64,000 nt of DNA. Source: Candidatus Stahliibacteriota bacterium (lineage in GTDB: Bacteria > Hydrothermota > Tepidihabitantia > SM23-42). The position numbers were made by a program, and so were the translations under genes. The stretch spans positions 761-64,760 of the forward strand of contig JAUVZL010000007.1 in NCBI GenBank assembly GCA_030602565.1, read 5' to 3'. Numbering within the stretch: position 1 is the first letter of the stretch; the number at the start of each line of letters is the position of its first letter. Positions 5,902 to 59,427 of this stretch are shown piece by piece. The notes below the pieces were generated by a model. That model did not search any database and had not been told where the DNA came from. It worked only from the letters and a program-made list of their open reading frames with translations.

Positions 5902-5967
5902 GAGTAACTGAAGTGAGTAACGGGGTGTCGGGGTAATGGTGTATCGGGGAAACGGTGTAACGGAGCA
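5902..5967. repeat. 8-bp periodic degenerate array with same leader ACTGAAGTGAGT
   Basis: gagtaact gaagtgag taacgggg tgtcgggg taatggtg tatcgggg aaacggtg taacggag; immediately after anti-sigma stop. Confidence 0.75.
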
Positions 5968-6354: not shown

Positions 6355-6397
6355 GTCTTTAGGTATTTAGGAATTTAGGTGTTTAGGTATTTGATAC
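6355..6397. repeat. tandem 8-bp repeat GTNTTTAG x5
   Basis: gtctttag gtatttag gaatttag gtgtttag gtatttga; reverse-complement-related copy next to tRNA at 17418-17455. Confidence 0.75.
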
Positions 6398-6422
6398 ATT
6401 CTCTCTTCCAATCCGTTAGGAT

Positions 6423-7001: not shown

Positions 7002-7012
7002 TCAAATTGGTG

Positions 7013-7801
7013 TTAGAGCTTTGTTTGCTCACAGAATTTTTCAAAAATCCGGGAAGGCCGGCGTTTTAAGAATCGATCCTGTGCATCTTTGTCTTCGATG
7101 AATTTTAGAATCCAATCTCTATTCGCTTTTGCCATTTTGCCGTATTCCATTGTTTTCTCCGGTTCGCCCGTGACAAAAATAAGTTTTTCTGAACGGAATA
7201 TGAGATCCCTCAGTTTGGCAAATTCGTCTTTCCGGTCAAGGAATTGATTTTCATACTGACGTTTAATCTTTTTTTCTGTTAGTATCTTATAGAATTCATT
7301 CTTGTTTTCGAGAAGCCTTTCACAATCAAAAAAGTTTTTGTTAAGCTCATAGCAGTTTTGGTCGATGAATATTTCACCGACCGGTGCTTTTTCTTCAAGT
7401 AAAGAGGCAGTATCAATAACCGGGCCGTAGACGTTACCGTCTTCACAAATCACTTCGCCGGTGGCAATACCGAGATGAGTGCCCATTAACTGAGTGATTT
7501 CTTTTGTAGCTTCCAATATTCTTAAGCCGCTTAGAACCGCGCTATACGAATCATAGCCATGCGATTTCGGGAAGCCAAAGATCGCCATGACACGGTCGCC
7601 TTCGTGGCGCAAAACAGTGCCGTCATGGATGTGGATTATCGAATCCAGGGTTCTGAAGCACTCGTTGACAAATTCGGCGATTCTTTCAGGTCCCAGTTTT
7701 GAGGTTAGCTCAGTAAATCCAGTAAGGTCTGCATAGAGGATTGTGGCAAGTCTTTTTTCCCTCACGATAAGTATTATACCTAAAAAAGGAATATTAGTCA
7801 A
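7013..7801 (-). CDS. class III adenylate/guanylate cyclase domain protein
   Basis: RLATILYADLTGFTELT ... VLRHEGDRVMAIFGFP cyclase homology domain signatures; TTG start. Confidence 0.75.
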   Translation of the reverse strand: MTNIPFLGIILIVREKRLATILYADLTGFTELTSKLGPERIAEFVNECFRTLDSIIHIHDGTVLRHEGDRVMAIFGFPKSHGYDSYSAVLSGLRILEATKEITQLMGTHLGIATGEVICEDGNVYGPVIDTASLLEEKAPVGEIFIDQNCYELNKNFFDCERLLENKNEFYKILTEKKIKRQYENQFLDRKDEFAKLRDLIFRSEKLIFVTGEPEKTMEYGKMAKANRDWILKFIEDKDAQDRFLKRRPSRIFEKFCEQTKL

Positions 7802-9470: not shown

Positions 9471-10669
9471 TAAACACCGAGTTCTTTGTTGCCAAGCGTT
9501 ATCTCCGTTCAAAGCACAGGAGGTTCTTTTCGCTTTCGACATTAATTGCTATCGGCGGGATTTTTGTCGGTGTTGCAGCTCTTCTTATTACACTCTCGAT
9601 GATGAACGGGTTTCAGAACGAATTGAGAAGAAGGATTCTCGGTGGTACGCCACACATTGTTGTTGGTCGATATTTCAATGAACCATTGGAAAATCATGTG
9701 GCGGTAATGCAAGAGCTGGAAAAACACAAGTTCATCAAGGCTATGGCGCCGTTCATAATTCAGAAATCCATTATCAGATCACGCAAGATGATGGATGGGG
9801 TGGTGATAAAAGGTGTTGATGAAGCATTAGAGAGAAACATAACAGAGATTGAACACAAGATAGTCAATGGCATTTTTGATTTGGATGGCGGTTGCGTGTT
9901 AGGCATTGAATTGGCGCATAACCTGAGGGTTACGGTTGGTGACACACTTATTGTCGCTTCACCATTTGGCGACCAGCTGGGCATGTTGCCGCGTGCAAAA
10001 AGAGTTGTTCTAAAAGGTATATTCGATTTTGGATACTATGATTACAACTCGACTATCGTCTACATGAATCTGGAAGATGTACGGTCTTTATTTGAGATGG
10101 GTGATGTCGTAAGTGCCATAGGTTTGAGCGTTGATGATGTATACGCCACACCCCATTACTCTGAGCTAATCGAAAATGATCTTGGCTATCCTTATCGTGT
10201 CAAGGATTGGATAAGGAGAAATCATTCGGTGTTCGCGGCGCTCAAACTTGAAAAGATTATTACATTTATCGTCCTGGCTTTGATCGTTCTGGTGGCTGGG
10301 TTCAATATTATCGGTACTTTAGTAAACATGGTCAAGAAGAAGACCAAGGAAATCGGCATACTCCGTTCTTATGGTTTCACATCAGGCGCCATTATGAGAC
10401 TCTTCATCTATCATGGAAGTATGATCGGTATCCTCGGTACCACCCTGGGATTAATTTTTGCTTTTGTTGCATGTCTTGTATTAGACAAGATCATTTTCAT
10501 ACACTTACCTGGTGATGTTTACTTTATTGATACCCTGCCGGTTGAAATGGCGACTCAGGATTTTGTGGTTACTGCCACCGCCGCGATTCTTATCAGCTTC
10601 TTGTCGACCATATATCCGGCTAAAAGAGCCGCAAAATTGACAACCGTTGAGGCACTCCGTAATGAATAA
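9467..10669 (+). CDS. lolC: lipoprotein-releasing system permease LolC/LolE (FtsX family)
   Basis: 400 aa; N-terminus FVAKRYLRSKHRRFFSLSTL typical of LolC/E, 4 TM with large periplasmic loop. Confidence 0.8.
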   Translation: MINTEFFVAKRYLRSKHRRFFSLSTLIAIGGIFVGVAALLITLSMMNGFQNELRRRILGGTPHIVVGRYFNEPLENHVAVMQELEKHKFIKAMAPFIIQKSIIRSRKMMDGVVIKGVDEALERNITEIEHKIVNGIFDLDGGCVLGIELAHNLRVTVGDTLIVASPFGDQLGMLPRAKRVVLKGIFDFGYYDYNSTIVYMNLEDVRSLFEMGDVVSAIGLSVDDVYATPHYSELIENDLGYPYRVKDWIRRNHSVFAALKLEKIITFIVLALIVLVAGFNIIGTLVNMVKKKTKEIGILRSYGFTSGAIMRLFIYHGSMIGILGTTLGLIFAFVACLVLDKIIFIHLPGDVYFIDTLPVEMATQDFVVTATAAILISFLSTIYPAKRAAKLTTVEALRNE

Positions 10670-13730: not shown

Positions 13731-15218
13731 ATGAGAAAAATCCTTGTAATTGTGTTTTTAATAAACATCTCATTTGCGTGGTGGTCATCGCCGATGAATC
13801 TTGGGATAACTGGCGCAGATGATATTAATCCCCAGACCTGTCGTATGCAGTTAATGTTTTATCCTCACACCTGTCTTGTCTGGCAGACAGATCTCAATGG
13901 CAACTGGGATATCTTTTCTCGGTTCAGCTACGGAGGAACATGGGGTGATACACTAAGAGTAACAACTGATGTTTCCACTGATAGTTGTCCGAGTGTTGCC
14001 TATGATTTTTCACGAGATTGTTTTTGGTGTGCCTGGCAGAACAATAGCACTGGTTACTGGGATATTTTTGTGGCTCAGACTGATACGTCAGGCGGATGGT
14101 TGTCACCATATCAACTTACGACGAGTGATGCTGATGATGAATCACCGTCTGTCTATGTTGATTTCGATACTGTTTGGGTAGTCTGGCAACATTCAGTTAC
14201 CGACTCAACAAATATCTATTCAACTTATTATGATGGTACAACCTGGGCAACGCCGGCTCCAATCACCAGTGATTCTAATGTTAGCAATATTCATCCAAAG
14301 ATAAATAGCCGCTATAATCATCCAATTGTAGTATGGGAGAGAGGTGATGAATTTTCTCAGCATGATATCTACTACAGTGAATATCTCAGTGGCACCTGGC
14401 AACTACCGCAGCCTATTACCACTGATCTGGGTCATGATTGTAACCCTGAAATAACGAGCGAAATTGACCCTGGTGGTAATGATACGTATGGTTCATGGGT
14501 GGTGTGGCAGTCAGACCGTGATGGGAATTACGAGATTTATTCTACTGGATATGATACATTCAATGTGTGTCATCGTTTGACTTTTGATGATTCCACTGAT
14601 ATTACGCCAAATCCACTGTTTTTTGACGCCGTAACTCAAGACAATGGTCCAACATGTACAGCTTTTAGTACAAATCGGAATGGTAATGCTGATATCTATA
14701 CGCATTTTGCTTATTGGGGAGGAGCAGATACGATAGTACCTGTGGATACTGATCCAGCCGACGACATTTCGCCTGTCATGACAGGTGGCAATATGTATAT
14801 CTGGGTCCTGTGGCAAACAGATAGGAACACTGATTGGGATATTTACGGAAGCTATATCTTTGTTGGAGGAGTTGAGGAATCAAAGGTTTATAATACTAAA
14901 GCGACTGCTGATTTAACCATCTACCCCAATCTGTTCAGACAAAAAACCAAGATCAGCTTTTGCATAGAGCATACCAATAGGAGAACACGTTCCTCCTACG
15001 GGACAGGAAGAGCAAAGGGCGCAGAGCTAAAAATCTATGATGCTACAGGGAGTGTGGTCAAGAATTTTTCACTGCCTACTGCTTACTCCTTACTGCCTGC
15101 TACTATCTTCTGGGATGGTACTAACAGCAAAGGTGAGCGATTGCCTCCAGGGGTTTATTTTGTGCGGTTGGAAAATGAGTCTGAAGCATTAACTGAAAAG
15201 GTTGTGCTGATTGAATAG
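13731..15218 (+). CDS. secreted PD40/TolB-like beta-propeller repeat protein with T9SS C-terminal sorting domain
   Basis: signal peptide; about 8 repeats of WQxDRDGNxDIY type; C-terminus KIYDATGSVV...GVYFVRLENE matches Por_Secre_tail. Confidence 0.7.
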   Translation: MRKILVIVFLINISFAWWSSPMNLGITGADDINPQTCRMQLMFYPHTCLVWQTDLNGNWDIFSRFSYGGTWGDTLRVTTDVSTDSCPSVAYDFSRDCFWCAWQNNSTGYWDIFVAQTDTSGGWLSPYQLTTSDADDESPSVYVDFDTVWVVWQHSVTDSTNIYSTYYDGTTWATPAPITSDSNVSNIHPKINSRYNHPIVVWERGDEFSQHDIYYSEYLSGTWQLPQPITTDLGHDCNPEITSEIDPGGNDTYGSWVVWQSDRDGNYEIYSTGYDTFNVCHRLTFDDSTDITPNPLFFDAVTQDNGPTCTAFSTNRNGNADIYTHFAYWGGADTIVPVDTDPADDISPVMTGGNMYIWVLWQTDRNTDWDIYGSYIFVGGVEESKVYNTKATADLTIYPNLFRQKTKISFCIEHTNRRTRSSYGTGRAKGAELKIYDATGSVVKNFSLPTAYSLLPATIFWDGTNSKGERLPPGVYFVRLENESEALTEKVVLIE

Positions 15219-28281: not shown

Positions 28282-28555
28282 CAACTCACCAGGATGTCGG
28301 AGATATCGTCGAAGATATCGAGGGTAATGAGATGAAGTATTTGAGATGCGTCAGTATCGAGTATCCCGAGATGTCGAAGATCTCGAGCACACCGAGAGGC
28401 ATCAGTATCGCCTGTCCCGAGTAATATCGAGGGGAGTATCCCGAGATGCTGAAAGTCCTGAGGAATCGAAGGGATTTGACCCCAATTTCTTCCCTTAGTA
28501 TCGAGAGAAGCCGAGATGAAGAATTGAAGGGACCTGATCCCCAACCTTTCCGCCA
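28282..28555. repeat. full-length composite dispersed repeat (MITE-like): left end CAACTCACCAGGATGTC, 8-bp-periodic TATCGAG/GTCCCGAG interior, right end tandem GAATCGAAGGGATTTGACCCCAATTTCTTCCC-like units
   Basis: fragments of same element at 24416-24536, 30322-30338 (left end only) and 31487-31576 (right end only). Confidence 0.8.
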
Positions 28556-30264: not shown

Positions 30265-30392
30265 TATCCACCTCCTTTTTTTCAAAGAGTATATTCTGAA
30301 GTTAACACATGTCAAGCCAATCCAACTCACCAGGATGTATCTCTACGAGATTCGATTACGGCGATAAACCAAATAAATTACATACCAGTGAT

Positions 30393-30432
30393 ATCACTGT
30401 CCCGCTCACGAGGACTCTTGGAGTAATCTGCT
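30393..30432. repeat. 40-bp exact repeat (copy 2)
   Basis: identical to 29057-29096. Confidence 0.9.
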
Positions 30433-30621
30433 CATAATCGCTGTCCCGCATAGCGTGGATCCTCGTCTTGTATGGCGGGATAATCATACGAGTCTACTCG
30501 TTGCATTTAATTATTGTTGTATCTGTAAATCACTGTCATCTGTTGTTAATCGCTGAAATTGACCCTAGGAGATAATGGCTGTCACGAATTTTTCTCAAAT
30601 CTATGATTTGATTGCAAAACT

Positions 30622-30694
30622 CAGTGTCCCGCCTGTCCCGAGTGTATCGAGAGAAGGTTGTCGAGGGGTTTTTCTTTTTGTTGGTTTCATTTCT
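30622..30694. repeat. ~65-bp dispersed element (copy 2, with extra GTCCCGCCT prefix)
   Basis: see 29209-29272. Confidence 0.85.
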
Positions 30695-31064
30695 GGGCTC
30701 CTTATATCTATTGGTTGCCGTAGGTCTCGTCGTAGATCTCGAAGTATTGAGAGGAGTGTATCGAGAGGCAATTTTTTCATAGACGGAGCAACCGTTTCTC
30801 CAAGTCTTAACAAGATGACACCATTTGCTTCTTTTGTAGCATTTGTCAAACGTTTAGATTTGACGCCATTTGTTTACAAAACAGTATAATCAAAGATAAT
30901 AAAGTCATATTGTCATGCACCGTCCCTACTTCCCAACAGTTAATTTTAGACAACCAGGCGGACGAGGATCGGTCTCAAGATTCTTTATCGAACGTAAAAT
31001 TCGAATAGCATCATTAGGGGAGAGTCTATAGATGAATTTTTCGGCTGATGGTTTTATTAAAACT

Positions 31065-31277
31065 CTATAATTCAAGTTTAGTATTATGCAATTTTTCGTA
31101 GCGTTCTACTACATCAGAAACTGAAATTGGTTGCCCTTTCTCTTCTTTTGCTTTCTTTAAGTCCTCAAGATCCTCAAGGATCTCAATTAATTCAGTGAAA
31201 GCTGGATTAGATTTTGCCCATTCCCAAATCTCTTTTGAAATAATAACTGAATCCTTTTCTATGTTGACTTTCGACAT
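31065..31277 (-). CDS. small hypothetical protein (70 aa), only ORF in a repeat-rich 1.5-kb stretch
   Basis: acidic helical protein; no family assigned. Confidence 0.3.
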   Translation of the reverse strand: MSKVNIEKDSVIISKEIWEWAKSNPAFTELIEILEDLEDLKKAKEEKGQPISVSDVVERYEKLHNTKLEL

Positions 31278-31486
31278 AAGATCCTCCTTATATTCAGTAT
31301 ACGATTATATGTCTAATTCACATTCTGTCAACATAAATGGTGCACGTTTTTATCTGAGTTCTGCAAAGCGAGACGATGAGGGGTTTTTCTTTTTGTTAGT
31401 TTCATTTTTGGCTGCACAAAATTTACTGTCCTCGTTTTCTGTAAAAGAAACGGGACTTCATCAATTTGTGAATTGTGAAGCTGAAA

Positions 31487-31576
31487 GTATCGCCTGTCCC
31501 GAGATGTCGAAGATCTCGCCTGTATCGAGTTTATCGAGATGAGTGAATCGAAGGGATTTGACCCCAATTTCTCTCC
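31487..31576. repeat. right-end fragment of composite dispersed repeat
   Basis: AGTATCGCCTGTCCCGAGATGTCGAAGATCTCG...GAATCGAAGGGATTTGACCCCAATTTCTCTCC. Confidence 0.8.
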
Positions 31577-31579
31577 TGG

Positions 31580-31702
31580 ATACCCTGGTCCCCTGATCAA
31601 GTCAGAGGATGCCAGGGTATGACCCCCGTACGATTAACATCCTACGGGACAGGCGGGATAAATAAAGCGAAAAGACTGAATACCCTGGTCAAGCCAGGGT
31701 AT
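31580..31702. repeat. two hairpins with identical 9-bp stems ATACCCTGG/CCAGGGTAT (31580-31620 and 31680-31702)
   Basis: second has loop TCAAG; both followed by TATGAC. Confidence 0.7.
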
Positions 31703-31889
31703 GACAATAAGTATGCTATAGGGTCAAATATGCCTTCGTTGGAAACTACGGCATACATGCCTACCCTCTCCCTCAATGGGAGAGGGAATTTTTTATTTGA
31801 CTTTTTATCGATATCCTATATAATCAAAACGCAATGAGATTTCAGGGGATAGGACACGAGAGCAGTGCAAGTGATTTATTCTTAATGAT

Positions 31890-32336
31890 ATGCAAAACTA
31901 TTTGCCTATGAAGTGGTCTGTCCATCCAGCAAAAGATAACTTTATAAAGACTATTTTCAGTCTTATTTTCATCGTTGGTTTCCTCGTGTTTGTATCAATT
32001 TTCTACGGAGTTTTCTGGGCTATCCTGGGTTCCATAATTCTTTTTGTCAGTTTGTATTCCTACTTTTTTCCATCGCATTATGAAGTGAATCAGGAGCAGG
32101 TGATTATCAGGAATATATTCCTTACCCAACGCAGGCGCCTGGCCGAGTTCAAGAAAGTCTACCGAGGTAAAAATGGGATACTACTCAGTCCGTTCAAAAG
32201 AAAAACCTTTTTGAACCAGTTTCGCGGTGTTTTTCTTTTGTTGCCGAGAGAACGACAGGAAATTGAGGACTACGTAAGGGGGCTGGTTGAAAGTGATGAA
32301 ATGACCGAGGACGAGCATTCGAAGAAAGATGGTTAG
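31890..32336 (+). CDS. membrane protein, hypothetical
   Basis: two long hydrophobic helices. Confidence 0.4.
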   Translation: MQNYLPMKWSVHPAKDNFIKTIFSLIFIVGFLVFVSIFYGVFWAILGSIILFVSLYSYFFPSHYEVNQEQVIIRNIFLTQRRRLAEFKKVYRGKNGILLSPFKRKTFLNQFRGVFLLLPRERQEIEDYVRGLVESDEMTEDEHSKKDG

Positions 32337-48661: not shown

Positions 48662-48960
48662 ACCTCCTTAGATAGTTTATTATAATAATCGAGCACTTGC
48701 CGGGCGATATTTTACCATTGGTGTAAGGTCCAACATTGTAAACCGTGCAGATAAGTACTCGCAGCCGTCTCAAAGCACTCTATAATAGCAAGATAATGAA
48801 GAAAGTCAAATGATATTTTATGAGAGCTCTGACAAAGTATTCATCGCTCTCTCGATTACAAAGATGCACGAAAGATTATCCCGATTTATCATCTTAAAGG
48901 TCAATATAGGAAAATCGAGGATCCCGTACAGCGGGACAGTGATATTTTATGTATGTCCTA

Positions 48961-48995
48961 TTGACAAATAGCTTCTATTTTATATAATAGAAGCT
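48961..48995 (+). promoter_or_regulatory. sigma70 promoter TTGACA-16-TATAAT for rpsA with 9-bp perfect palindrome AGCTTCTAT/ATAGAAGCT overlapping the -10
   Basis: read directly. Confidence 0.5.
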
Positions 48996-49032
48996 TGAAC
49001 AGCGAACCTGTTCAAAGGAGGATTTGTACGAA

Positions 49033-50703
49033 ATGAAAAGGTATTCTGAAGAAGAGATGAAGAAGCTTTTAGAAGCTTCTTTTGTCATCGCAAAAGAGGG
49101 CGATATCGTAAAGGCTTCAGTAATCAAAAAGACTGAGAATGGCGTTCTTCTGAATCTCGGACTTAAAGCCGAAGGTTTTTTACCTTTAGAAGAATTTGCA
49201 GCATCAGAAGATGCAGCAGTTGGCAAAGACGTTTATGTATTTTTGGAAGCCTATGAGGACCGCGATGGGTTTCCAGTGATTTCAAAAAAGAAAGCCGAAT
49301 TTCAGCTTGCCTGGGATAAAATAAAACATCTCTACGAAAATGGCGAACTTGCCATGGCCACCTTGAAGAAACGCATAAAAGGCGGGTTTACTGTTGATAT
49401 AATCGGCGTTGAGGCTTTCTTGCCCAGTTCTCAGATTGAATTCAAATCACAGGCTGAGATTGATGCTGCGATTGGTAACAAGGTTGGTGTGAAGATTGTA
49501 AAGATCAATATGATGCGCAAGAATATTGTTGTTTCCAGGAGATTTGTGGTTGAAGAAGAGCAGGTGAAAACACGTAAGATAATCTTCAGCAAGATAAAGG
49601 TCGGCGATATTATTGAAGGCACAGTACGTAACATAACTGATTTCGGCGGTTTTATCGATATCGGTGGGATCGATGCTTTGCTTCACATAACTGATATCTC
49701 ATGGTCAAAGATAACCCATCCAGCTGAGATATTAAAGGTCGGCAGCAAGATAAAGATTAAGGTATTAGTAATGGACCCTGAGACCGGCCGTATAGCTGTT
49801 GGTTTAAAGCAACTGTCTCTTCATCCATGGGCAAAAATCGAGAAGAATTTCCCGGTTGGCGCAAGGATTAAAGGAAAAGTCACGAGCGTCGTTGACTATG
49901 GCGCATTTGTTGAAATCGAGAAGGGTATTGAAGGACTCGTTCACGTTTCGGAAATGTCCTGGAAAAAAGATATCAAAGACCCGGCGAAAATTCTCAAAGT
50001 TGGTGATATTGTAGAGGCAGTCGTCTTGTCGATTGCTCGTGATGAACGAAGGATTTCGCTCGGCATGAAACAGACCAAACCAGATCCTTGGTCAACGGTC
50101 GATGAGAGATTCGAAGTTAATCAAAAGGTTGTAGTGAAAGTTACTAACCTCAAGGACTTTGGTGCTTTTGTGCAGCTTATCGATGGGGTTGAAGGTTTGA
50201 TTCATGTGAACGACTTTTTCTGGGATAAAAAGGTTAAGAAGGCTTCTGATTATTTGAAGAAAGGTCAGAATGTTGAGGTTGTGATCCGAATGGTCGACCG
50301 CAGAAACCGTAGGATTTCGTTGTCCATAAAACACACAAAAGAAGATCCTTTTAACAGATTCACGGACTGCCATAATGAAGGTACGATGGTGATCGGAAAG
50401 GTCAGCGATATTTTGCCTAAAGGCATAAGGATTATGCTCGAAGGAGGCATTGAGGAGTTTATCCCGGCGAACTATTTGGCACGGCGTGGGAAAAAGCCTA
50501 AGGATTTGTACAAGTTGGGTGAAGAAGTCGAGGTCATAATCAGGAAGATTAACCCCAGATTAAGAAGGATTATACTCAGCGAAAAAGAACTCCATAAACC
50601 ACGCGTCAAGAAGAAGGAACCGGTTAAGCCTAAGCCAACTGATAAGTTTACAATCGGTGATATTCTCGGTGCCAAAAATAAAGAAACCGATAAACCAAAA
50701 TAG
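49033..50703 (+). CDS. rpsA: 30S ribosomal protein S1
   Basis: six S1 domains; ATG 49033 spaced from AGGAGG. Confidence 0.9.
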   Translation: MKRYSEEEMKKLLEASFVIAKEGDIVKASVIKKTENGVLLNLGLKAEGFLPLEEFAASEDAAVGKDVYVFLEAYEDRDGFPVISKKKAEFQLAWDKIKHLYENGELAMATLKKRIKGGFTVDIIGVEAFLPSSQIEFKSQAEIDAAIGNKVGVKIVKINMMRKNIVVSRRFVVEEEQVKTRKIIFSKIKVGDIIEGTVRNITDFGGFIDIGGIDALLHITDISWSKITHPAEILKVGSKIKIKVLVMDPETGRIAVGLKQLSLHPWAKIEKNFPVGARIKGKVTSVVDYGAFVEIEKGIEGLVHVSEMSWKKDIKDPAKILKVGDIVEAVVLSIARDERRISLGMKQTKPDPWSTVDERFEVNQKVVVKVTNLKDFGAFVQLIDGVEGLIHVNDFFWDKKVKKASDYLKKGQNVEVVIRMVDRRNRRISLSIKHTKEDPFNRFTDCHNEGTMVIGKVSDILPKGIRIMLEGGIEEFIPANYLARRGKKPKDLYKLGEEVEVIIRKINPRLRRIILSEKELHKPRVKKKEPVKPKPTDKFTIGDILGAKNKETDKPK

Positions 50704-50721
50704 ATTCCCTCACGACATAAT

Positions 50722-51879
50722 TTGCAGAAGATAATTAACCTTGGCTGCAAACTAAATCAGTATGAGGGGTTTTGTTTGGCAAAGAAATTTGCCGACACCC
50801 AAAATTTGATTATTGTCAATACTTGTTGTGTGACAAAAGAAGCTGAGACCAAGTCACTGAGGAAATTCAGATCAGCAAAAAGGCAGTATCCTGATCACAA
50901 GGTTATTGCCACTGGATGTGCCTGTCGGCTCGCCCCTGAAAAATTCCATAGTGCTGATCAAGTTATTGATAACGTACAAAGGAATGAGTTCATCAAAGGC
51001 ATTTTTCCAGAGCCTGAAAAATCCAGATATTTTTTGAAAATTCAAGACGGTTGCAATGGGGAATGTTCTTACTGTGTCGTGGTAAAGGTCAGGGACAAGG
51101 TTGAGAGCAGATCGACAGAAGAAATCATCGAGGAAATCAAATGGGCTGTGTCGCATGGTTATCAAGAAGTTGTGCTTGTCGGTGCTAATATCGGTCTTTA
51201 CGGTTATGATATTGGGTTGCAACTAATAGATTTACTGAAAGCGCTTAGTAAAATATCTGGTCTGCCGCGACTCAGGCTTTCGTCACTTGAACCTAATTTC
51301 GTCAATGAAGACTTGATTCGATGCCTGAAAGATTTGCCCTTTTGTCGCCATTTTCACTTGCCTGTACAGAGTGCTGATAACAGCATCCTGGTAGCAATGA
51401 AACGGCAGTACGACATCGTGTATCTTGAAAAGATAGTTTCTCTGATAGCTAAGAGTTTCACTGATGTTGCGATTGGTGCAGATATAATCGTAGGCTTTCC
51501 CGGTGAAATGGAACACGAGTTTGACAATACCTACAAGTTTATCAAAAGACAGCCATTTACTCATTTGCATGTTTTCCCCTATTCACCAAGACCATTGACG
51601 AGCGCGTATATCCTGGGCGACCCAATAGACCGTAGAACAAAGCGACAACGCCTCTGGCAACTAAAGGACCTGATCAAGGAGAAAAACCACCTGTTCAGAA
51701 AAAGCCTCTTGGGCAAGTTGTTTGACGTTGTGATTGAGGGAAGGGATCCAGTACCGAAGGGATTAACGGATAACTATATCAGGGTATTTATCAATGGCGT
51801 GTGCAATACAAAGCGAGCAACCATTAAAGTTGAAAGGGTAACAGCTGATAAGACGTTTGGGACCGTTGATAATGCCTGA
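50722..51879 (+). CDS. mtaB: MiaB-family radical SAM methylthiotransferase, MtaB-like
   Basis: N-terminal INLGCKLNQYEG, radical SAM GCNGECSYC; 385 aa; TTG start. Confidence 0.7.
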   Translation: MQKIINLGCKLNQYEGFCLAKKFADTQNLIIVNTCCVTKEAETKSLRKFRSAKRQYPDHKVIATGCACRLAPEKFHSADQVIDNVQRNEFIKGIFPEPEKSRYFLKIQDGCNGECSYCVVVKVRDKVESRSTEEIIEEIKWAVSHGYQEVVLVGANIGLYGYDIGLQLIDLLKALSKISGLPRLRLSSLEPNFVNEDLIRCLKDLPFCRHFHLPVQSADNSILVAMKRQYDIVYLEKIVSLIAKSFTDVAIGADIIVGFPGEMEHEFDNTYKFIKRQPFTHLHVFPYSPRPLTSAYILGDPIDRRTKRQRLWQLKDLIKEKNHLFRKSLLGKLFDVVIEGRDPVPKGLTDNYIRVFINGVCNTKRATIKVERVTADKTFGTVDNA

Positions 51880-51986
51880 CTGAAGGCGAGGCGGCGAGAT
51901 GAAGCCACTTGATTAGGCGTAGCCCTCTCAATGGAGAAACAAGGTGTAATTTCAATAATTGAACTTATGGGACAGGTTTTATTTAC

Positions 51987-52014
51987 TTGACAAAAACTGA
52001 AAAATGTGTAAAAT
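51987..52014 (+). promoter_or_regulatory. sigma70 promoter TTGACA-16-TAAAAT
   Basis: read directly; upstream of 52061 gene. Confidence 0.45.
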
Positions 52015-52060
52015 CTATGTTGTATAAATATTTACGATAGTTACTTAGGAGATAACTAAC

Positions 52061-52861
52061 ATGAATAATAGTACAGCTGAAAAATATCTTGGCCCAAAGG
52101 AAACAGAAGTAATTGCAAGACTTTCTTACGAGAAAGCAACCTTAATTACAAAAGAGCAGTTTGACAAGTGGTTTGAGTTTAACCCCGCACTGCGGAAACA
52201 GATAATCTTTAGGCTCAAGAAAAAAGGCATACTGACTGCTATTAAAAGAGGAGTTTATTTTTATTCGCCGCTTGAATCAGGTCCGGCAGGAAGTAGTATA
52301 AACGAGTTCCTTGTGCCGCCTGTTTTCTTTCCAGGAGGCAATTACTACGTAGGGTATTCAATTATGTATAACTATTATGGCTTCACAGACCAGATTTTCC
52401 AGACAATGTATATTCTCAACACTTCTTTACAACGTGCGAAGACAATAGGCAATGTGCGATATAAAATGGTTAAAATACCTGCAAAAAGAATGTTTGGGCT
52501 TGAAAATATTAAGATAGAGGATACTGAAGTCATAATAAGCGATAGGGAAAGGACTCTTGTGGATTTGATTTATTTTTCAGGACCTGTCGGTGGACTAAAG
52601 AAAGCATTTGAGATATTAGAAGAGCAGGCAAAAAATCGTAAGGTTAATGTTAGTAAATTGGTTAAATATGCTGCTAAATTTCCTAATATTTCAACTCGAA
52701 AAAGGATAGGTTTTGTTTTAGAAAAGGCAGGCATCGATTATAAGAGACTCGAGCCTTTGCTTAAAACCGTAAGAAAGACATCCTTTGTTACGCTTTATCC
52801 TTCAAAATCAAGAAGAGGAAGAATAAATAAGAAGTGGATGGTAATTGAAAATGCTCCATAG
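52061..52861 (+). CDS. AbiEi-like (type IV TA antitoxin-like) winged-helix protein, orphan
   Basis: N-terminal wHTH with KRGVYFY motif reminiscent of AbiEi; no AbiEii partner present. Confidence 0.35.
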   Translation: MNNSTAEKYLGPKETEVIARLSYEKATLITKEQFDKWFEFNPALRKQIIFRLKKKGILTAIKRGVYFYSPLESGPAGSSINEFLVPPVFFPGGNYYVGYSIMYNYYGFTDQIFQTMYILNTSLQRAKTIGNVRYKMVKIPAKRMFGLENIKIEDTEVIISDRERTLVDLIYFSGPVGGLKKAFEILEEQAKNRKVNVSKLVKYAAKFPNISTRKRIGFVLEKAGIDYKRLEPLLKTVRKTSFVTLYPSKSRRGRINKKWMVIENAP

Positions 52862-52974
52862 CAATAAGGACGAATAGCATGGCAAAAACCAATCATGAGC
52901 GTAATGCGGTATTTAGAAATATTTATTAGATTTATCAAAAAAGATAAATTGGATTTTTTTGGAAAGGATAGAGA

Positions 52975-53150
52975 CATGTCATTCCCGCGCAAGCGGGAAT
53001 CTATGAATGGTTGGTTTGATTCTGGATTCCCAGTCAAGCTGGGAATGACAAGAGGGGATGCTGGGAATGACAAGAGGGGATGCCGGGCAATGACCAGACA
53101 GGTATTGCCGAAGGGTTTTCCTGTCTCGGCAATCGCAGGCATCCGACTTT
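52975..53150. repeat. cluster of hairpins with GGGAAT/ATTCCC arms incl. GNRA-looped ATTCCCGC-GCAA-GCGGGAAT, ATTCCCAG-TCAAG-CTGGGAAT, tandem 21/22-bp GGGAATGACAAGAGGGGATGC x2
   Basis: read directly; ORFs 52795-53142(-) and 52895-53152(+) here judged spurious. Confidence 0.7.
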
Positions 53151-53209
53151 AATTTCGACTATGCGCAGTATCTGCAGTAGCCATTAGGAAAGTCCCCCCG
53201 AAAAATGTA

Positions 53210-53238
53210 TTGCAATATCCGGCCGCAATATGTATAAT
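53210..53238 (+). promoter_or_regulatory. sigma70 promoter TTGCAA-17-TATAAT upstream of recombinase remnant/miaB
   Basis: read directly. Confidence 0.4.
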
Positions 53239-53345
53239 GTAAATCGTTCAATGAAATCTCAAAAAATGAGAATATAGCGAAAGGAAAACAATGAAGAGAA
53301 TTTCTATTAGACATAAGAGCTTCTCCCAAAATGAACGATAATTCG

Positions 53346-53447
53346 ATGAAGATGAAAATCGCTATCTATATTCGTATTTCTACGGAAGAACAGGCAAAAG
53401 AAGGTTATTCGATAGAATTTCAGCCAAATTCAAATATAAGCTCATAG
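53346..53447 (+). pseudogene. N-terminal remnant (34 codons) of a serine recombinase (resolvase/invertase/large serine recombinase)
   Basis: MKMKIAIYIRISTEEQAKEGYSIEFQ matches catalytic N-terminus (Ser in RIST/RVST); truncated by stop. Confidence 0.6.
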
Positions 53448-53456
53448 AAAATAATA

Positions 53457-54785
53457 ATGTCAAAAGAATCAAAATCGTATAAAAATTCACCGAAAAAATT
53501 CTACATTAAGACCTTCGGTTGTCAGATGAATAAAAATGATTCCTCAATAATAACCGATATTTTGGAAAGCAACGAGTATAAACGTACTGAAGACCCTTGT
53601 TACGCTGATATCTATATTGTAAATACGTGTTCAGTAAGGGAGCATGCAGAACAGCGTGCCTTGGGACATATCGCTTCTTTGAAAAAATGGTCAGATAAGG
53701 AAGAACGGGTAGTTGCCGTAGTCGGCTGCATGGCACAACGTTTGGCTAATGAGATCACCAAGCAATATGCTTTTGTAAATTTGGTCTTGGGTCCTGATTC
53801 ATACCGAAAGATCGCCGAGTACCTGGACCAGATATTTGATACCAAGACGAGAATTATCGAAACGAAGCTGGGTAATGAGGTCTACGGTGATATCTTTCCA
53901 AAACGGACAGGCATAACCGATTTCGTATCGATTATGCGCGGCTGTGATAACTTCTGTACCTACTGCATTGTACCTTATGTCAGGGGACGGGCGCGTTCCA
54001 GATCTGTAGATGAGATTATGAGCGAGATGCAGAGCATGGTGCGCAGCGGCGTGAAAGACATTACCCTTTTAGGACAGAATGTCAATGAATACTCACATGG
54101 CAATACGGATTTTGCCGGTCTGTTAAACATGGTTGCTCAGAACCTTGAATTAGTGCGGCTTCGTTTCCTGACCTCACATCCAAAGGATCTGGATGACGCA
54201 ACTATTAAGGCAGTTAGAAACAACGACAAGATATGTAGGTGGTTTCATTTGCCCCTCCAATCAGGGTGTGATCGGATACTTCAATTAATGAACCGCAAGT
54301 ACACCAAGAATGATTTTCAAGAGCTCGTTCAGAGAATAAGACAGAACATCCCTGATGCAACGGTCACGACCGACATCATTGTCGGTTTTCCTACAGAGAC
54401 CGAGGAGGAATTTCAGGAAACAGTTGGCATGATGACTGAGATAGGGTTTGATAATGCCTACTTGTATAGGTATTCACCAAGACAAGGCACAAAAGCATTT
54501 GAGTATGAATCTTTGCCTGAACACGTGATTAAAGATCGACTCAAGAGGATAATCAATGTTCAGAACAAGATAGTCATTAGTAAGGCAAGGCAGATGATTG
54601 GTCAGACATATGAAGTCCTTTTTGAAAGCCCGGCATTGAATAACGCGACACGGGCCAAGACACGGGGTAATAAGAATGTTATCGTTGAAAAAGAAATCGC
54701 ACCTGGTGTTTTGAGTAAAGTAATAGTAAAAGAGGTGAGAGGGAGGACCCCGATTGCCGAAATCATCAAATATTTTAGGTATTGA
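53457..54785 (+). CDS. miaB: tRNA-2-methylthio-N6-dimethylallyladenosine synthase
   Basis: FYIKTFGCQMNKNDS N-domain, MRGCDNFCTYC radical SAM, TRAM C-terminus. Confidence 0.85.
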   Translation: MSKESKSYKNSPKKFYIKTFGCQMNKNDSSIITDILESNEYKRTEDPCYADIYIVNTCSVREHAEQRALGHIASLKKWSDKEERVVAVVGCMAQRLANEITKQYAFVNLVLGPDSYRKIAEYLDQIFDTKTRIIETKLGNEVYGDIFPKRTGITDFVSIMRGCDNFCTYCIVPYVRGRARSRSVDEIMSEMQSMVRSGVKDITLLGQNVNEYSHGNTDFAGLLNMVAQNLELVRLRFLTSHPKDLDDATIKAVRNNDKICRWFHLPLQSGCDRILQLMNRKYTKNDFQELVQRIRQNIPDATVTTDIIVGFPTETEEEFQETVGMMTEIGFDNAYLYRYSPRQGTKAFEYESLPEHVIKDRLKRIINVQNKIVISKARQMIGQTYEVLFESPALNNATRAKTRGNKNVIVEKEIAPGVLSKVIVKEVRGRTPIAEIIKYFRY

Positions 54786-54870: not shown

Positions 54871-57800
54871 ATGAAGAAAATAGGATTAGGTATATTAGTG
54901 TTTGCTGTTTTTCTTAACGCGGCAGTGACAACAGCAATAGGGAAGACAAATCCAGTTCCGCTATACAATAACCAGAAGCAATCCATAAATGCTCCGGTTG
55001 TGCAGAGTGATGTGGTGCCGTGTATTGACCAAGAAAACCATGGTGTGTTCATACCGATGGTGTATGGAAATGCGGGTAAGATAACGTTTTCTAATGGCAT
55101 ATCGTTCGATACTGAGGTTTTAGAAAAGGCCGGCGAACCGAATCTGCCGGGTGAAATGCAGTATCGTCCTGACGAATCTGCGTATTATATTGTGCAGTTT
55201 AAAGGTCCGGTATATGAAGCGCAGAAGTCCTGGTTGAATAGTAATGGTGTGGTCATTCATTTCTATGTACCGCATTATGGTTTTGTCTGTAGTATTGAAG
55301 ATATGGGTGATGTTGAGAAGGTACGTGCGGCTTTGTCAGTGGCATGGGTTGGTATGTATCAGCCGGCGTACAAGGTATCTGGTTTATTTAAACATGTTGG
55401 TAATGAACATCGGGTTACAATACTAATGTTTATGGATGCGGATATCAGTGCTGTTTTGGCTGAGGTCGAGGTAATTACTGGTCGCGCGCAATTTGAAGTT
55501 ACAGACAATGGTATTAATAAGATGATTCATGGTATGGTTAGTCAGGGACATGTTAATGATTTGGCGCGTATCCCTGGTATTTACTGGATCGAGCCGTATA
55601 TTCAGCCAGTAACACATAATAATAATGTGCAGTGGATTGTCCAGGATGCGCAGAATAATGTTCGCAATATCTGGGATAAGGGTATACGTGGTGAGGGTGA
55701 GATTGTCAATAATACAGACTCGGGTATTAATACGAATCATTATCAACACCGGTCTGGAAGTTCAGCAATAGGCACATGGGGTTATTATCCTTCGCATAAT
55801 GCGATCGTAGCCTATGATTCAGGCGCGCCATCGACGATCGTGTTTGGTGATGGCGGTTCGTATCATGGTACACATACAGTCTGTACGCTGACTGGCGATG
55901 ATTCACCACATGCGTCTTCGAATCGTGATGGCATTGCCATGAAAGCAAAGGTGTATTTTAATGACTGCGGTGATAATACATCAGGTTCGATCTACACGTA
56001 TGGTGACCTTAATGATCTATATATAAGATCTTATAATCGTTATTATCCTCCGACCAGGGCACATATCAGTACTAACTCCTGGGGTGCTGAGGTTGATGGT
56101 GAGTATACCTCAACCTCGCTTGCGGTTGATCAGTTTATGTGGGGACAAAAAGATTTCCTTTTATGTTTTTCTGCTGGTAATAGTGGACCATCTTCTGGAT
56201 CAATAGGCGCACCGGCTTCTGCAAAGAATGTGGTGACAGTAGGCGGTTGCCTTAATGGTTCGGCTAATCAGTATCAATCGATTTATTTCTGGGGCAGCCG
56301 TGGGCCATGTCAGGATGGTCGAATGAAACCGACTATTATTACCCCGGCGCAGGCCGTGGTGTCTGCATGGTATGGGACGAGCAATTATCAAAGTATGAGT
56401 GGTACGAGTATGGCATCGCCGAGTGCAGCTGGTGCTGCAGCATTGGTCAGGCAGTATTTACGCGAGGGCTGGTATCCAACTGGTTCGCAGACTGCTTCGG
56501 ATTCATTTGCGTTTATTAGTGCCGCGCTATTAAAGGCAATCCTTGTCAATTGCGCTGATGACGATATTTCGGGTTATCAGGTTCCTGACAATAATATTGG
56601 CTGGGGCAGGGTAGACCTTGATTCGACGCTTTACTTTACTGGTGAGGCGCGCAAGACTTTGTTGGTTGATAATACTCCCGGTGTGCTAACTGGTGAACAA
56701 GTTGATTATCATTTTAATGTTCCTTCAGGTGCATCAAACCTTAAGATAGCACTTGTCTGGACTGATTATCCAGGAAATCCAGCGGTACTGACTCAGATTG
56801 TGAATGACCTGGACTTGGTCGTCACGATCAATGGTACATATTATAATGGTAATCAGTATTCAGGTGGTCAATCACAGGCTAATCCAGCAGGTCGTGATTC
56901 ATTGAACGTGGTGGAGTGTGTGCGTCGGAACAATCCATCGTCGGGTGATTACCGGGTGAGCATACTTGCGCGCAATGTGCCGTGTGGACCCCAGCCATTC
57001 AGTCTTGCTATCAGTTATAATGCAGGAGCAATTGCTGGCGTTGTGACCCTTGATAAGCCCGTGTATAGGGCAAATGACTTTGTGGTTGACACGGTACGTA
57101 TAAGAGTAGAAGATACGAACTATGGCGCTCCAGGTTCAGTTGATCAGGTAATGGTAGTAATTAATAGTGCGATAACTGAAACACAACCTGAGACATTATA
57201 CTGCACAGAGCTCGCGGCGAATGCGTATGTATTTACCGGTGAAATGTCGCTGCTCTTTCACAAACCAGTACATGGTGATTCAAAGTTATCAGTATGCCAG
57301 GGTGATACAATCCATGTGGCATATACTGATGCAAATCCTTCCTACACCTCGATAGCATGGGCTGGCGTTGATGCTTCGTACTTTGTGATTAGCGATGTCC
57401 ACTGCGAGAACATTGAGGCGGATATGGTTGACATAGTGTGGATAACCAATGAGAATTCCAGCTCGACGGTCTATTATGGTATTGATCCAGGTAATTTAAA
57501 TCAGGTTGTTTCGCCTGATACTCCGTATGTAAGCACACACCGCGTCCACATTACAGGTCTCAGCGAAACGACTCGCTACTACTACGACGTTGAATCAAGA
57601 GACTTCCGAGGAAACGTGGTGCGTGATAATAATGGTGGTCAGCACTACTCATTTAGCACCGGGAGTTTTGCCGGTGTCGATATTCTGGTTGCGCTTGCAG
57701 ATGGAATTGATGGCGGAGCCGCATCAGGCCAGCCTTTGCCTGGTTTGCAATACCGTTTCCGAAAGGCAATAGAAAGTGGAGGTTGGTCATACACGTGGTG

Positions 57801-59427
57801 GAGATCTTCGGATCACGGTGGTGAAATACCTGCTCGAGATATGATGAAGAATTACAAGGCAGTATTTGTGCCCTGTGAAGATGAATATCCACCATACCTT
57901 CGCGCCCAGCAGGAGACGATCAAGGTTTATCAGGAGAACGGTGGTAGAATTGCATTCGCTGGTCACGATTTTCTGTGGCATGCCTGGGATAATAGTACGA
58001 CTCCTGGCTATGATAGTCTGTGGTGTAAAAACTATCTCCAGGGACGGTATGTCAGTGATATCACCGTGGCCGGAAACTATGACATCTATGGTGTTGCGGG
58101 TGACCCGATAAGTGGTGATTATACTGGTGGTGTGTTTTATAGTCCTCACCGTACTGGTGCATGTGGTGATGAAATGCAAGGAATAAATAATCCACCGAAT
58201 GGATGGGATACTGGAACATCGACGAATATCTGGCGCTGGGACGCAATAAACGGTATGCTCGTCGGCACAAAATGGGAATCCAATAGTAACCACGGGACGC
58301 CAGGCGATGGTGTCTGGGGTGGATATCGTACCAGGACAGTGATGAATGCTTTCTCAGCTACTCAGATGGATACATTATTACTACCAGACATTCTCAACAA
58401 AATATTTATCTGGCTCATTGGACACGACCATCCTGACGTGACACTTAGCTCACCGCAAGGTGGTCAAACCTATTCATCGAGTCCGATTTCGATCGCCTGG
58501 ACCGCTTCAACACATGGTGGTGCGTCAGTTGATACAACCTGGATTGAATATTCACCTGATCAAGGACAAACCTGGATTGAATTAATATCAGGCACCGGCG
58601 TGACCTCGCCCTATTCCTGGGATATCAGTAGTTTGATCAATGGTTTACGATATCGTGTCAGGGTAACTGTCTGTGACAAGGATGTTTATCCGTCAATGAA
58701 AGGTTTTGACGAAACAGAAAATTTCACAATCAGTATTCCTGGCAATGATTACATAGGACCAAAGGTTATCCCGCAGTCGATGACAGTTCAATATAACCCG
58801 ATGATCGTGACCGCGACTAATCTTCTCCTGCCGATCGCTGCAGCGGTCAATGATTCTCTCAGTGGTCTAAGTAATATCGCAGCGGCTGAGTGGTCTTTGG
58901 GCTCTGACCCTGCTTCACCAGGTTCAGGGTATGCAATGGCAGCGCTTGATGGTTCATTCAATCAGATACAAGAAGCAGTGGTAGATACTATGGATTGCAT
59001 ATATAACCCTGGTGTTACTAATGTCTGTACGCTGTGGGTACGTGGACAGGATGCCGCCACAAATTGGGGGTCAGCGTTAATGCGGACCTTTACAATAATT
59101 GACGGCCAGATAATTATCGGTGTTTCTGAATCAGGTAAACTGATTCCGTTTCACTTTTCGCTATCCAATCCAATTCCTAATCCGTTCACAAACCAGGTAG
59201 CGATTTCTTATGGCATACCCAAATCTGTGCAAGTTAGTCTTAAGATCTACAATTGCCTTGGTCAGGTCGTTAAAACACTGGAAGACGGCGTAGTCGAGCC
59301 TGGTATTTACAGGGCTATGTGGAATGGTACTGACAACTTAAATCGTAAAGTTAGTGCGGGTATATATTTCTACAGATTCACGAGTGATGAATACACATCA
59401 ACGAAGAAGATGGTGATGGTAAGATAG
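54871..59427 (+). CDS. 1518-aa secreted subtilisin-like (S8) serine peptidase with multiple beta-sandwich domains and T9SS C-terminal sorting domain
   Basis: catalytic triad motifs NNTDSGIN, SYHGTHTV, GTSMASPSAAGAAALV; C-terminus NPIPNPF...SGIYFYRF...KKMVMVR = Por_Secre_tail. Confidence 0.8.
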   Translation: MKKIGLGILVFAVFLNAAVTTAIGKTNPVPLYNNQKQSINAPVVQSDVVPCIDQENHGVFIPMVYGNAGKITFSNGISFDTEVLEKAGEPNLPGEMQYRPDESAYYIVQFKGPVYEAQKSWLNSNGVVIHFYVPHYGFVCSIEDMGDVEKVRAALSVAWVGMYQPAYKVSGLFKHVGNEHRVTILMFMDADISAVLAEVEVITGRAQFEVTDNGINKMIHGMVSQGHVNDLARIPGIYWIEPYIQPVTHNNNVQWIVQDAQNNVRNIWDKGIRGEGEIVNNTDSGINTNHYQHRSGSSAIGTWGYYPSHNAIVAYDSGAPSTIVFGDGGSYHGTHTVCTLTGDDSPHASSNRDGIAMKAKVYFNDCGDNTSGSIYTYGDLNDLYIRSYNRYYPPTRAHISTNSWGAEVDGEYTSTSLAVDQFMWGQKDFLLCFSAGNSGPSSGSIGAPASAKNVVTVGGCLNGSANQYQSIYFWGSRGPCQDGRMKPTIITPAQAVVSAWYGTSNYQSMSGTSMASPSAAGAAALVRQYLREGWYPTGSQTASDSFAFISAALLKAILVNCADDDISGYQVPDNNIGWGRVDLDSTLYFTGEARKTLLVDNTPGVLTGEQVDYHFNVPSGASNLKIALVWTDYPGNPAVLTQIVNDLDLVVTINGTYYNGNQYSGGQSQANPAGRDSLNVVECVRRNNPSSGDYRVSILARNVPCGPQPFSLAISYNAGAIAGVVTLDKPVYRANDFVVDTVRIRVEDTNYGAPGSVDQVMVVINSAITETQPETLYCTELAANAYVFTGEMSLLFHKPVHGDSKLSVCQGDTIHVAYTDANPSYTSIAWAGVDASYFVISDVHCENIEADMVDIVWITNENSSSTVYYGIDPGNLNQVVSPDTPYVSTHRVHITGLSETTRYYYDVESRDFRGNVVRDNNGGQHYSFSTGSFAGVDILVALADGIDGGAASGQPLPGLQYRFRKAIESGGWSYTWWRSSDHGGEIPARDMMKNYKAVFVPCEDEYPPYLRAQQETIKVYQENGGRIAFAGHDFLWHAWDNSTTPGYDSLWCKNYLQGRYVSDITVAGNYDIYGVAGDPISGDYTGGVFYSPHRTGACGDEMQGINNPPNGWDTGTSTNIWRWDAINGMLVGTKWESNSNHGTPGDGVWGGYRTRTVMNAFSATQMDTLLLPDILNKIFIWLIGHDHPDVTLSSPQGGQTYSSSPISIAWTASTHGGASVDTTWIEYSPDQGQTWIELISGTGVTSPYSWDISSLINGLRYRVRVTVCDKDVYPSMKGFDETENFTISIPGNDYIGPKVIPQSMTVQYNPMIVTATNLLLPIAAAVNDSLSGLSNIAAAEWSLGSDPASPGSGYAMAALDGSFNQIQEAVVDTMDCIYNPGVTNVCTLWVRGQDAATNWGSALMRTFTIIDGQIIIGVSESGKLIPFHFSLSNPIPNPFTNQVAISYGIPKSVQVSLKIYNCLGQVVKTLEDGVVEPGIYRAMWNGTDNLNRKVSAGIYFYRFTSDEYTSTKKMVMVR

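Follow-up and report, generated by a model that had tools for sequence, protein, structure and literature searches.

A decayed islet at the 5' end of miaB as the probable remnant of a small integrative element with an orphaned AbiE antitoxin gene

The window analysed here is a stretch of 64,000 nucleotides (nt) of contig JAUVZL010000007.1 from a Candidatus Stahliibacteriota bacterium, and its nearest named relatives are Candidatus Stahlbacteria metagenome-assembled genomes (MAGs). In the window, an mtaB-like gene and miaB, two members of the MiaB family, are separated by an islet with an AbiEi-like gene, a repeat block, and a recombinase fragment. How did this islet come to lie between the two genes, and what does it still encode? 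The islet was compared with loci of other organisms (L001–L038). Positions 51868–53521 (1,654 bp), whose ends lie 12 nt inside the mtaB-like gene and 65 nt inside miaB, are very probably the immobilised remnant of a small integrative element, of a family inserted by a large serine recombinase (LSR) into the miaB 5' end. The features are collected in Table 1.

The right flanking gene was identified as MiaB, the tRNA i6A37 methylthiotransferase (NCBIfam equivalog TIGR01574, 429.8 bits; cut-off 355.3). The best NCBIfam match of the left flanking gene was MtaB (TIGR01579), at 321.8 bits, which is below the equivalog cut-off of 357. In L032–34, the gene order was the same as in the window (S1, mtaB-like, miaB, S8 protease, DeoC, S21, MutS, DnaG), and the mtaB-like stop and the GTG start of miaB were separated by 2 nt. 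In L029–31, the mtaB-like stop TGA was followed directly by the ATG of miaB, 0 nt apart. The mtaB-like proteins of these empty-site relatives ended in TFGAEVI* and TFGTVVR*. Since the two genes are contiguous in syntenic relatives, the stretch 51868–53521 was inserted, and it separated two MiaB-family genes of one operon. As far as gene order in the relatives tells, the ancestral state is a tight S1, mtaB-like, miaB operon. A preliminary description of the locus had proposed the scar of an integrated element that split paralogous genes, and had suggested looking for relatives with adjacent mtaB and miaB. The adjacency was found, and the empty sites bear out the insertion; the element landed inside the miaB coding sequence, not between the genes.

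The right boundary was located within miaB. From 53371 to ~53505, a span that takes in the tail of the recombinase stub, the leader, and miaB from its ATG through codon 16, the window was ~94% identical to L001. Beyond ~53505, identity to L001 fell to ~70%, as over the remaining miaB and the mtaB-like gene. The right end of L006 was also ~94% identical to that of the window. The peptide MSKESKSYKNSPKKFYI(K/R)TFGCQMNKNDS was identical in MiaB proteins that were only 56–68% identical overall. The crossover was mapped to the Cys codon of the FGCQMN motif, at position 53521 or immediately 5' of it. Judged by these alignments, MiaB codons 1–21 are element-borne. About 27 of 120 MiaB homologues (P0268, P0270, P0281, and others) were annotated from MNKNDS, omitting the conserved FGC cysteine. 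MiaB proteins with this start were considered as insertion markers and rejected, because in L029 the start was a gene-calling artefact of an overlapping upstream gene.

A recurrent junction of the left attachment site (attL) type was found in relatives, in which miaB, ending in the GGNTG of its Phe-Gly-Cys codons, is joined to ACCTT. The full junction reads ...GGNTG/ACCTTNTAT...GGYTTTACAAT, with a 25-nt P' arm. Such junctions occurred in L019, L025–27, L028 (two in tandem), and L036, which represent four lineages. About 100 nt behind the P' arm was also conserved among the junctions. In L019, the islet's miaB 5' copy was cut at TTCGGTTG and joined to ACCTTTTATACAGGTTTTACAATAT. L019 4270–7423 is a further element, inserted at the islet's own miaB 5' copy; besides the P' arm, it has an HTH_3 protein of 74 aa and a 696-aa protein with HsdR_N and N6-methyltransferase domains. 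This insertion suggests that the miaB start of the window is a still-usable attachment site. A scan of viral contigs (viral_contigs) for the P' motif gave 0 matches. In L025 (5675, minus strand) and L036 (8714, minus strand), attL-type junctions were inverted relative to the recombinase remnant, which suggests recombinase-mediated inversions within the islands.

The left boundary of the islet was different. Positions 51867–51926 matched L019 4383–4442 at 90%, and also L006 8666–8726. Because 51868–51926 aligned to the conserved sequence behind the P' arm in L019 and L025, the left junction of the islet is read as the product of a deletion, by which attL was lost and the interior of the element became fused to the mtaB-like gene. 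The last 4 codons of the mtaB-like gene (DNA*, from ~51868) are therefore element-derived sequence. A search of 51880–51975 for a remnant of the old miaB start gave only an 8-nt match, which was unconvincing.

The fragment ending 9 nt before miaB had been described as the catalytic N-terminus of a serine recombinase, and this assignment was upheld. The homology covers 53346–53423 (MKMKIAIYIRISTEEQAKEGYSIEFQ), ~26 homologous residues including the catalytic-serine motif RIS. Residues 7–31 of the stub aligned to residues 2–26 of TP901-1 integrase (PDB, E = 0.0019), and its IYIRISTEEQ fits the nucleophilic Ser motif Y-x-R-[VI]-S-T-x-x-Q. Pfam gave no match for the 38-aa stub open reading frame (ORF), the piece being too short, and the stub does not hold the full set of Resolvase, Recombinase, and zinc ribbon domains. 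Shorter stub copies were present in L001–3, L006, and L038. A metagenome scan with the stub alignment (A1) led to L022, a ~165-codon serine recombinase pseudogene fused to the miaB leader of another organism; stub and L022 remnant shared 82.5% nt identity over 63 nt, and 79% identity in protein. Since longer genes and pseudogenes occupy the same position elsewhere, the homology of the stub to recombinases is confirmed.

With the L022 remnant as the query, a total of 990 homologues was obtained, the best 120 of which were all 121–261 aa long. Each of the five homologues that were looked up lay in an island, either at miaB itself or at a pseudo-copy of its 5' end. An LSR or LSR remnant lay directly upstream of miaB in L022, L024, L028, and L035, and within the miaB island in L036, which held two recombinase copies. 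In L028, the 178-aa remnant overlapped the miaB start. L024 and L035 carried Phage_rep_O, a small HTH_17/MerR gene, and an essentially complete recombinase. The HTH_17/MerR gene lay just upstream of the recombinase in L024, L035, and L036, and could be a directionality factor. After one A-run frameshift was mended, the L024 LSR had 548 aa, with Resolvase, Recombinase, and Zn_ribbon_recom domains. Its last ~25 codons overlapped, in another frame, a miaB N-terminus like that of the window (GYGKNTVKKGSVYIRTIGCQMN).

The many homologues of ~175 aa had raised the idea that the recombinase is split by integration (SSV-type). This was rejected, since the L024 gene is contiguous at the right end, no C-terminal halves occur at left ends, and the truncation points differ. 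At L024 ~8490–8530, near codon 170, the reading frame is interrupted within an A-rich stretch (AACAAAGAAAAGAAAGC), not far from the truncation points of L025, L028, and L022. This stretch may be prone to slippage or deletion, or the break may be a deliberate inactivation.

The cargo of the islet belongs to the AbiE system. AbiE was reportedly described by Dy et al. in 2014 as a type IV toxin-antitoxin and abortive-infection system of an AbiEi antitoxin-repressor and an AbiEii nucleotidyltransferase. The AbiEi-like gene proposed earlier, with its own promoter, was verified with Pfam AbiEi_1 (4e-10, 40.5 bits; cut-off 22.2) and with PADLOC AbiEi (1e-48 over residues 10–265). A total of 590 AbiEi homologues was found, many of them 70–87% identical. 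In the contexts looked up, they are normally followed by a 292-aa AbiEii, the two genes overlapping by 11 nt. An exact-protein look-up of the window AbiEi and its 100% identical twin P0001 returned no record.

No AbiEii ORF follows abiEi in the window, in agreement with the preliminary description, and only 25 nt and ~39 nt of abiEii are left. In blastn against L001, window 51978–52875 matched 5918–6815 (89.5%) and 52875–52914 matched 7615–7654. As the L001 alignment skips from 6815 to 7615, the window carries a clean 799-bp deletion inside abiEii, and the homology of all relatives ends at 52875. An intact 292-aa AbiEii (PF08843, 9.7e-30) was present at the same spot in L001/2/3, L006, L007, L008, L012, and L038. 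The contigs of L001 and L002 read S1, mtaB-like, AbiEi, AbiEii, miaB, the same locus with an intact toxin. L001 comes from sample 3300024433, as do L019 and the window-type strain. The sister strain L019, 97% identical over window 48748–52130, had the same abiEii deletion junction and additionally lacked 652 bp of abiEi. The Aerophobetes locus L014 had a separate, independent internal abiEii deletion. With the toxin deleted, the AbiE of the window cannot work as a toxin-antitoxin or abortive-infection module. The ratio of nonsynonymous to synonymous substitution rates (dN/dS) of the window AbiEi was 0.17–0.24, the same as in copies with an intact partner, so relaxed selection on the orphan abiEi is not yet visible.

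Some loci held further AbiE variants. Two distinct AbiE systems lay in tandem upstream of miaB at L008 400–3900, with a miaB 5' pseudo-copy between them; the first had an AbiEi_4-like antitoxin and AbiEii, and the second was the window-type pair. Of the first system, only decayed pieces were present in L006 and only the promoter in L007. At L012 1553–1670 and L014 3078–3250, a different small ORF lay between AbiEii and miaB (MKKPKQIKVYEKSIDEFQLNSYISS in L012), which shares with the recombinase stub ORF only its tail (EFQLNS.ISS).

The cassette and its hosts gave different divergences. The nt identity of the cassette to the window was 83–90% in every comparison, while miaB identity ranged from 69% to 91%. 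Between the window and L001, AbiEi had a synonymous divergence (dS) of 0.35 and the dS of miaB was saturated. As the cassette is more alike than its hosts, it and the miaB start that it carries have moved horizontally. Elements of this kind were found at exactly this position in several uncultivated bacterial lineages, and an AbiE module of 75% nt identity also occurred in unrelated defence islands (L004/5). The cargo of the sister islands was of toxin-antitoxin and defence type, namely HEPN/nucleotidyltransferase pairs, AbiE, DruA, HsdR, NurA/HerA, methyltransferases, and an SMC-like ATPase. The preliminary description had counted the same content in distant relatives against an integrated element. 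AbiE did occur at this spot in all other Stahlbacteria loci recovered; the reading as an element is not overturned by this, because the cassette phylogeny is incongruent with that of the host and the site is a site-specific hot spot.

These results are consistent with the following course of events. The LSR, which probably catalysed the insertion and makes the junctions, would cross over within the Cys codon of the conserved FGCQMN motif of miaB. The right end of the element would carry the recombinase gene, whose last codons overlap, in a different frame, a second version of the leader and N-terminal codons of miaB. MiaB would stay intact after integration, with element-encoded codons 1–21, and the original miaB start would remain as a pseudo-copy at the left junction. 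The cargo here was an AbiE (AbiEi/AbiEii) module. Three deletions then disabled the element: the 799 bp inside the toxin gene, all of the recombinase gene between codon ~31 and the miaB leader, and the left junction, where the 3' end of the mtaB-like gene was fused to the element interior. What is left comprises the intact abiEi with its promoter, the block of hairpins and 22-nt repeats, what was presumably the recombinase promoter, and the mimic of the miaB 5' end. The TTGCAA-17-TATAAT site named in the preliminary description was found; it was presumably the recombinase promoter and may now feed transcription into miaB, which would be transcribed from island promoters. Units that have no recombinase may have been moved in trans.

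Table 1. Features of the islet, its flanking genes, and two reference sites (window coordinates unless a locus is named)
Feature	Position	Strand	Remarks
mtaB-like MiaB/RimO-family radical-SAM methylthiotransferase gene	50722–51879	+	Pfam UPF0004 + Radical_SAM; left flank of islet
Remnant of the element's left end	51868–51975		Region ~38 nt inside the P' arm of intact junctions; attL and original miaB 5' end deleted
abiEi promoter-like site TTGACA-16-TAAAAT	51987–52014	+	11/12 positions; kept in L001, L003, and L004 cassettes
abiEi, 266 aa	52061–52861	+	Intact type IV antitoxin/autorepressor-type gene, orphaned
abiEii remnant	52851–52914	+	First 25 nt (52851–52875; start codon + 8 codons, MLHSNKDE*) joined at 52875/52876 to last ~39 nt (52876–52914)
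Hairpin and variable-number repeat block	52932–53151		Discrete block of ~220 bp
Hairpin 1, NTS/dRS3/SRM class	52977–53004		TGTCATTCCCGCGCAAGCGGGAATCTAT
Hairpin 2	53026–53046		ATTCCC-N9-GGGAAT
22-nt perfect tandem repeat	53038–53098		2.7 copies; TRF; best-scoring array in window
25-nt imperfect inverted repeat	53078–53144		
Promoter-like site TTGCAA-17-TATAAT	53210–53238	+	10/12 positions, consensus match only; identical in L019
LSR remnant, 38-codon ORF	53331–53447	+	Ends 9 nt before miaB
Element-borne right end (right attachment site, attR; P arm)	53424–53521	+	miaB leader, start codon, codons 1–21 (MSKESKSYKNSPKKFYIKTFG + 2 nt of Cys22)
miaB, 442 aa	53457–54785	+	Intact, chimeric 5' end; Pfam UPF0004 + Radical_SAM + TRAM
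P-O-P' junction between two units	L036 ~14340–14400		
Empty miaB attachment site (attB), example	L032 ~10040–10090		

Several points weigh against an LSR-driven element. The window is without its own attL, as no P' arm was found in it at up to 6 mismatches; with attL lost, its membership of the family rests on the right end and on the homology of the left-end remnant. Pseudo-copies of the miaB start lay immediately left of the AbiE cassette in L001, L003, L007, and L008, and they ran past the proposed crossover (to NKNDS or NKN) and abutted the AbiE promoter; at these four loci, the left junction is thus a secondary rearrangement rather than a clean attL site. Among the best 120 of the 990 homologues (P0121–P0240), none was an intact, unfused LSR of full length, and the L024 gene is near full length only after frameshift correction. 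No excised circular form of the element was found. Every sequence compared was a metagenome assembly. Finally, a long similarity between P arm and attB is unusual for LSRs; here the P arm probably resembles miaB because it must encode FYIKTFG, a coding constraint.

Movement by homologous recombination was weighed against insertion by the LSR. The AbiE cassette would have arrived, and would move between lineages, as DNA that is taken up and recombines by way of the miaB 5' copies and the flanking genes, with the recombinase stub as a passenger that had no part in the insertion. In L001, L003, L007, and L008, the cassette stands between direct repeats that consist of ~50 nt from the miaB 5' end, the left junctions there are not at an LSR-type crossover, and the cassette is more alike between hosts than its flanks and yet has no working recombinase. 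This explanation is nevertheless unlikely: the flanks of L001 and the window, ~70% identical, are too divergent for efficient recombination, precise junctions with the 25-nt P' arm recur in four unrelated lineages, and LSRs are the only recombinase genes in these islands, always oriented into miaB. It is hardly credible that the stretch is native and that AbiEi, passed on vertically within Stahlbacteria, is a transcription factor belonging to the S1-mtaB-miaB operon. The presence of AbiE in every Stahlbacteria-type locus recovered, and the intact abiEi with a dN/dS of ~0.2, would fit this. It is contradicted by the empty sites in syntenic relatives, and the AbiE module in the unrelated islands L004/5, the incongruent divergence of cassette and host, and the abiEi deletion in sister strain L019 also argue against it. 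Insertion of an integrative element by an LSR thus remains the preferred reading of the islet as a whole.

Two further questions concern parts of this element. The orphan AbiEi might be kept because it is useful, either as an anti-addiction factor against incoming AbiEii or as a repressor of the island promoters driving miaB. The intact ORF, the conserved promoter, and a dN/dS no higher than in partnered copies are in line with this, as are the related AbiE cassettes that circulate at the same site and the independent toxin-only deletions in the window and in Aerophobetes L014. A useful AbiEi is still rather doubtful, since L019 (97% identical) lost its 652 bp of abiEi without apparent consequence, and, if the toxin loss was recent, there has been too little time for relaxed selection to show. 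The orphan AbiEi is probably without an essential role. The other question is whether the hairpin and 22-nt block is part of the recombinase machinery or an independent, widely distributed repeat sitting in the island, mobile or targeted by nucleases, of the NTS/dRS3/SRM type (recognised by Ssn GIY-YIG single-stranded DNA nucleases). The latter is slightly favoured by its sequence, by its broad occurrence, by its varying copy number, and by its moved position in L007 and absence from L001 and L006, as set out below. Against an independent repeat, the window holds a sole SRM match in 64 kb, and a crude pattern search found no GIY-YIG-like small ORF (Ssn, ~94 aa) in the window or in loci L001–L038.

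The GGGAAT hairpins and tandem repeats of the preliminary description were present; the block measured ~220 bp and not 175 bp, and its repeat unit 22 nt and not 21 nt. Its fold z-score of -4.1 is far from chance. L019 had 6.7 copies of the 22-mer, and the window 2.7. The block was 81.5% identical to L007 5313–5511; in L007 it flanks the AbiE cassette on the opposite side. In the spacers of the islands, other short palindromic repeats were found (L001 5690–5840, L006 8930–9070, L007 5230–5310), for example TGTCATTGCGA...GAAGCAATC, which is unlike the GGGAAT type; short palindromic spacer repeats of this kind are common in candidate-phyla genomes. Hairpin 1 fits the Neisseria dRS3 consensus ATTCCC-N8-GGGAAT and 26 of the 28 positions of the NTS consensus. 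NTS, dRS3, and the degenerate Ssn-related motif (SRM) have been described as hairpin repeats (PMC11893778), and the published SRM regular expression had one exact match in the 64-kb window, at 52977. The hairpin core pattern occurred in at least 120 IMG/VR contigs, with GC contents from 32% to 72%. Unlike the known NTS/dRS3/SRM repeats, the hairpin is found at a single locus within the 64 kb and not in hundreds of copies, and a 22-nt tandem repeat of half-sites, itself variable, accompanies it.

The element family was compared with known systems. SXT/R391 elements insert at the 5' end of prfC and restore the gene, by a tyrosine recombinase. Islands with dusA-specific integrases, likewise tyrosine recombinases, insert at the 5' end of that conserved gene and restore it (PMC4482086). 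The elements at miaB are like these islands in that they insert in the 5' coding end of a housekeeping (tRNA-modification) gene, supply a new 5' end, leave the old one as a pseudo-copy, and carry accessory or defence genes. The difference is that the associated enzyme is an LSR, and its 3' end overlaps the gene-start mimic. With LSR elements (TP901-1, phiC31, and SPbeta prophages, and the SCCmec ccr at rlmH), the family shares the domain architecture, the TP901-1-like catalytic motif, and the position of the gene at the element edge beside the attachment site. LSR attachment sites typically have no more than a central dinucleotide in common, and the target is usually disrupted or has the site at its 3' end. 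In the family at miaB, ~65 nt of the coding start of the target are imitated by the P arm, and nearly all members recovered are truncated.

A third likeness concerns tandem units. Attachment sites of Streptococcus thermophilus integrative and conjugative elements (ICEs) support tandem accretion and cis-mobilisable elements (CIMEs). As in CIMEs, recombinase-less units bounded by attachment sites stand in tandem with recombinase-bearing units (the L028 pair, the P-O-P' junction of L036, and the L019 insertion). Unlike CIMEs, the units are tiny (1.6–5 kb) toxin-antitoxin or defence cassettes without conjugation genes. The relation to AbiE systems is seen in the family matches, the 11-nt gene overlap in relatives, and the strong upstream promoter; the window differs in retaining only the antitoxin gene. 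In the literature searched, miaB did not figure among the targets of such islands, and no serine recombinase integrating into it was found; only rimO, a MiaB-like gene, was mentioned, as an ICE target. The window copy is an ordinary decayed islet, and the element family is not described in the literature searched.

A broader interpretation can be put forward tentatively, with the odds somewhat against it. The miaB 5' end in several uncultivated phyla may be the docking site of an LSR-driven integron-like system, with hosts in Stahlbacteria/WOR-3, one Aerophobetes MAG, and at least 3 other lineages. Short toxin-antitoxin or defence cassettes, each running from P' arm to miaB-start mimic (P arm), would be stacked in tandem. 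Most of the cassettes would have no recombinase; the recombinase of some units would act on them in trans, capturing and reshuffling them and carrying them from one distant host to another. The islet of the window would be one decayed cassette, and its miaB 5' end a still live attachment site.

For the window, a non-functional defence remnant accounts for both the odd gap in the operon and the chimeric N-terminus of MiaB, and the locus should not be annotated as a working AbiE system. The comparison also exposed a family of serine-recombinase elements with a defined and highly conserved protein-coding target, the FGC codons of miaB. The gene-start mimic of this family overlaps the recombinase's own 3' end, and in poorly known phyla its members, small cassettes of toxin-antitoxin and defence type, are arrayed in tandem. 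The family provides a concrete pair of recombinase and attachment site for testing, a marker for defence islands in MAGs, and a natural case in which toxin-antitoxin modules have repeatedly decayed by losing the toxin first.

Other features of the window were recorded. Rfam gave only a sub-threshold chance match on 51700–53600 and only tRNA-Met on the whole window, and no intrinsic terminator was found in the islet region. A gene for a 1518-aa S8 peptidase (window 54871–59427) follows miaB in the window, L007, and L012, and its homologue in L032 has a Por_Secre_tail (type IX secretion) domain. The gene was missing in L001 and L038, where DeoC comes directly after miaB; this gene beside the hot spot is a lineage-specific gain or loss. 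Other short tandem repeats in the window lie at 2440–2521, 5917–5963, and 28343–28421, with 8/16-nt GGAGTATC units and one 25-nt unit. The region 30330–31890 has no ORF of at least 120 aa and contains two GGGTATGAC sites 82 nt apart (31615 and 31697).

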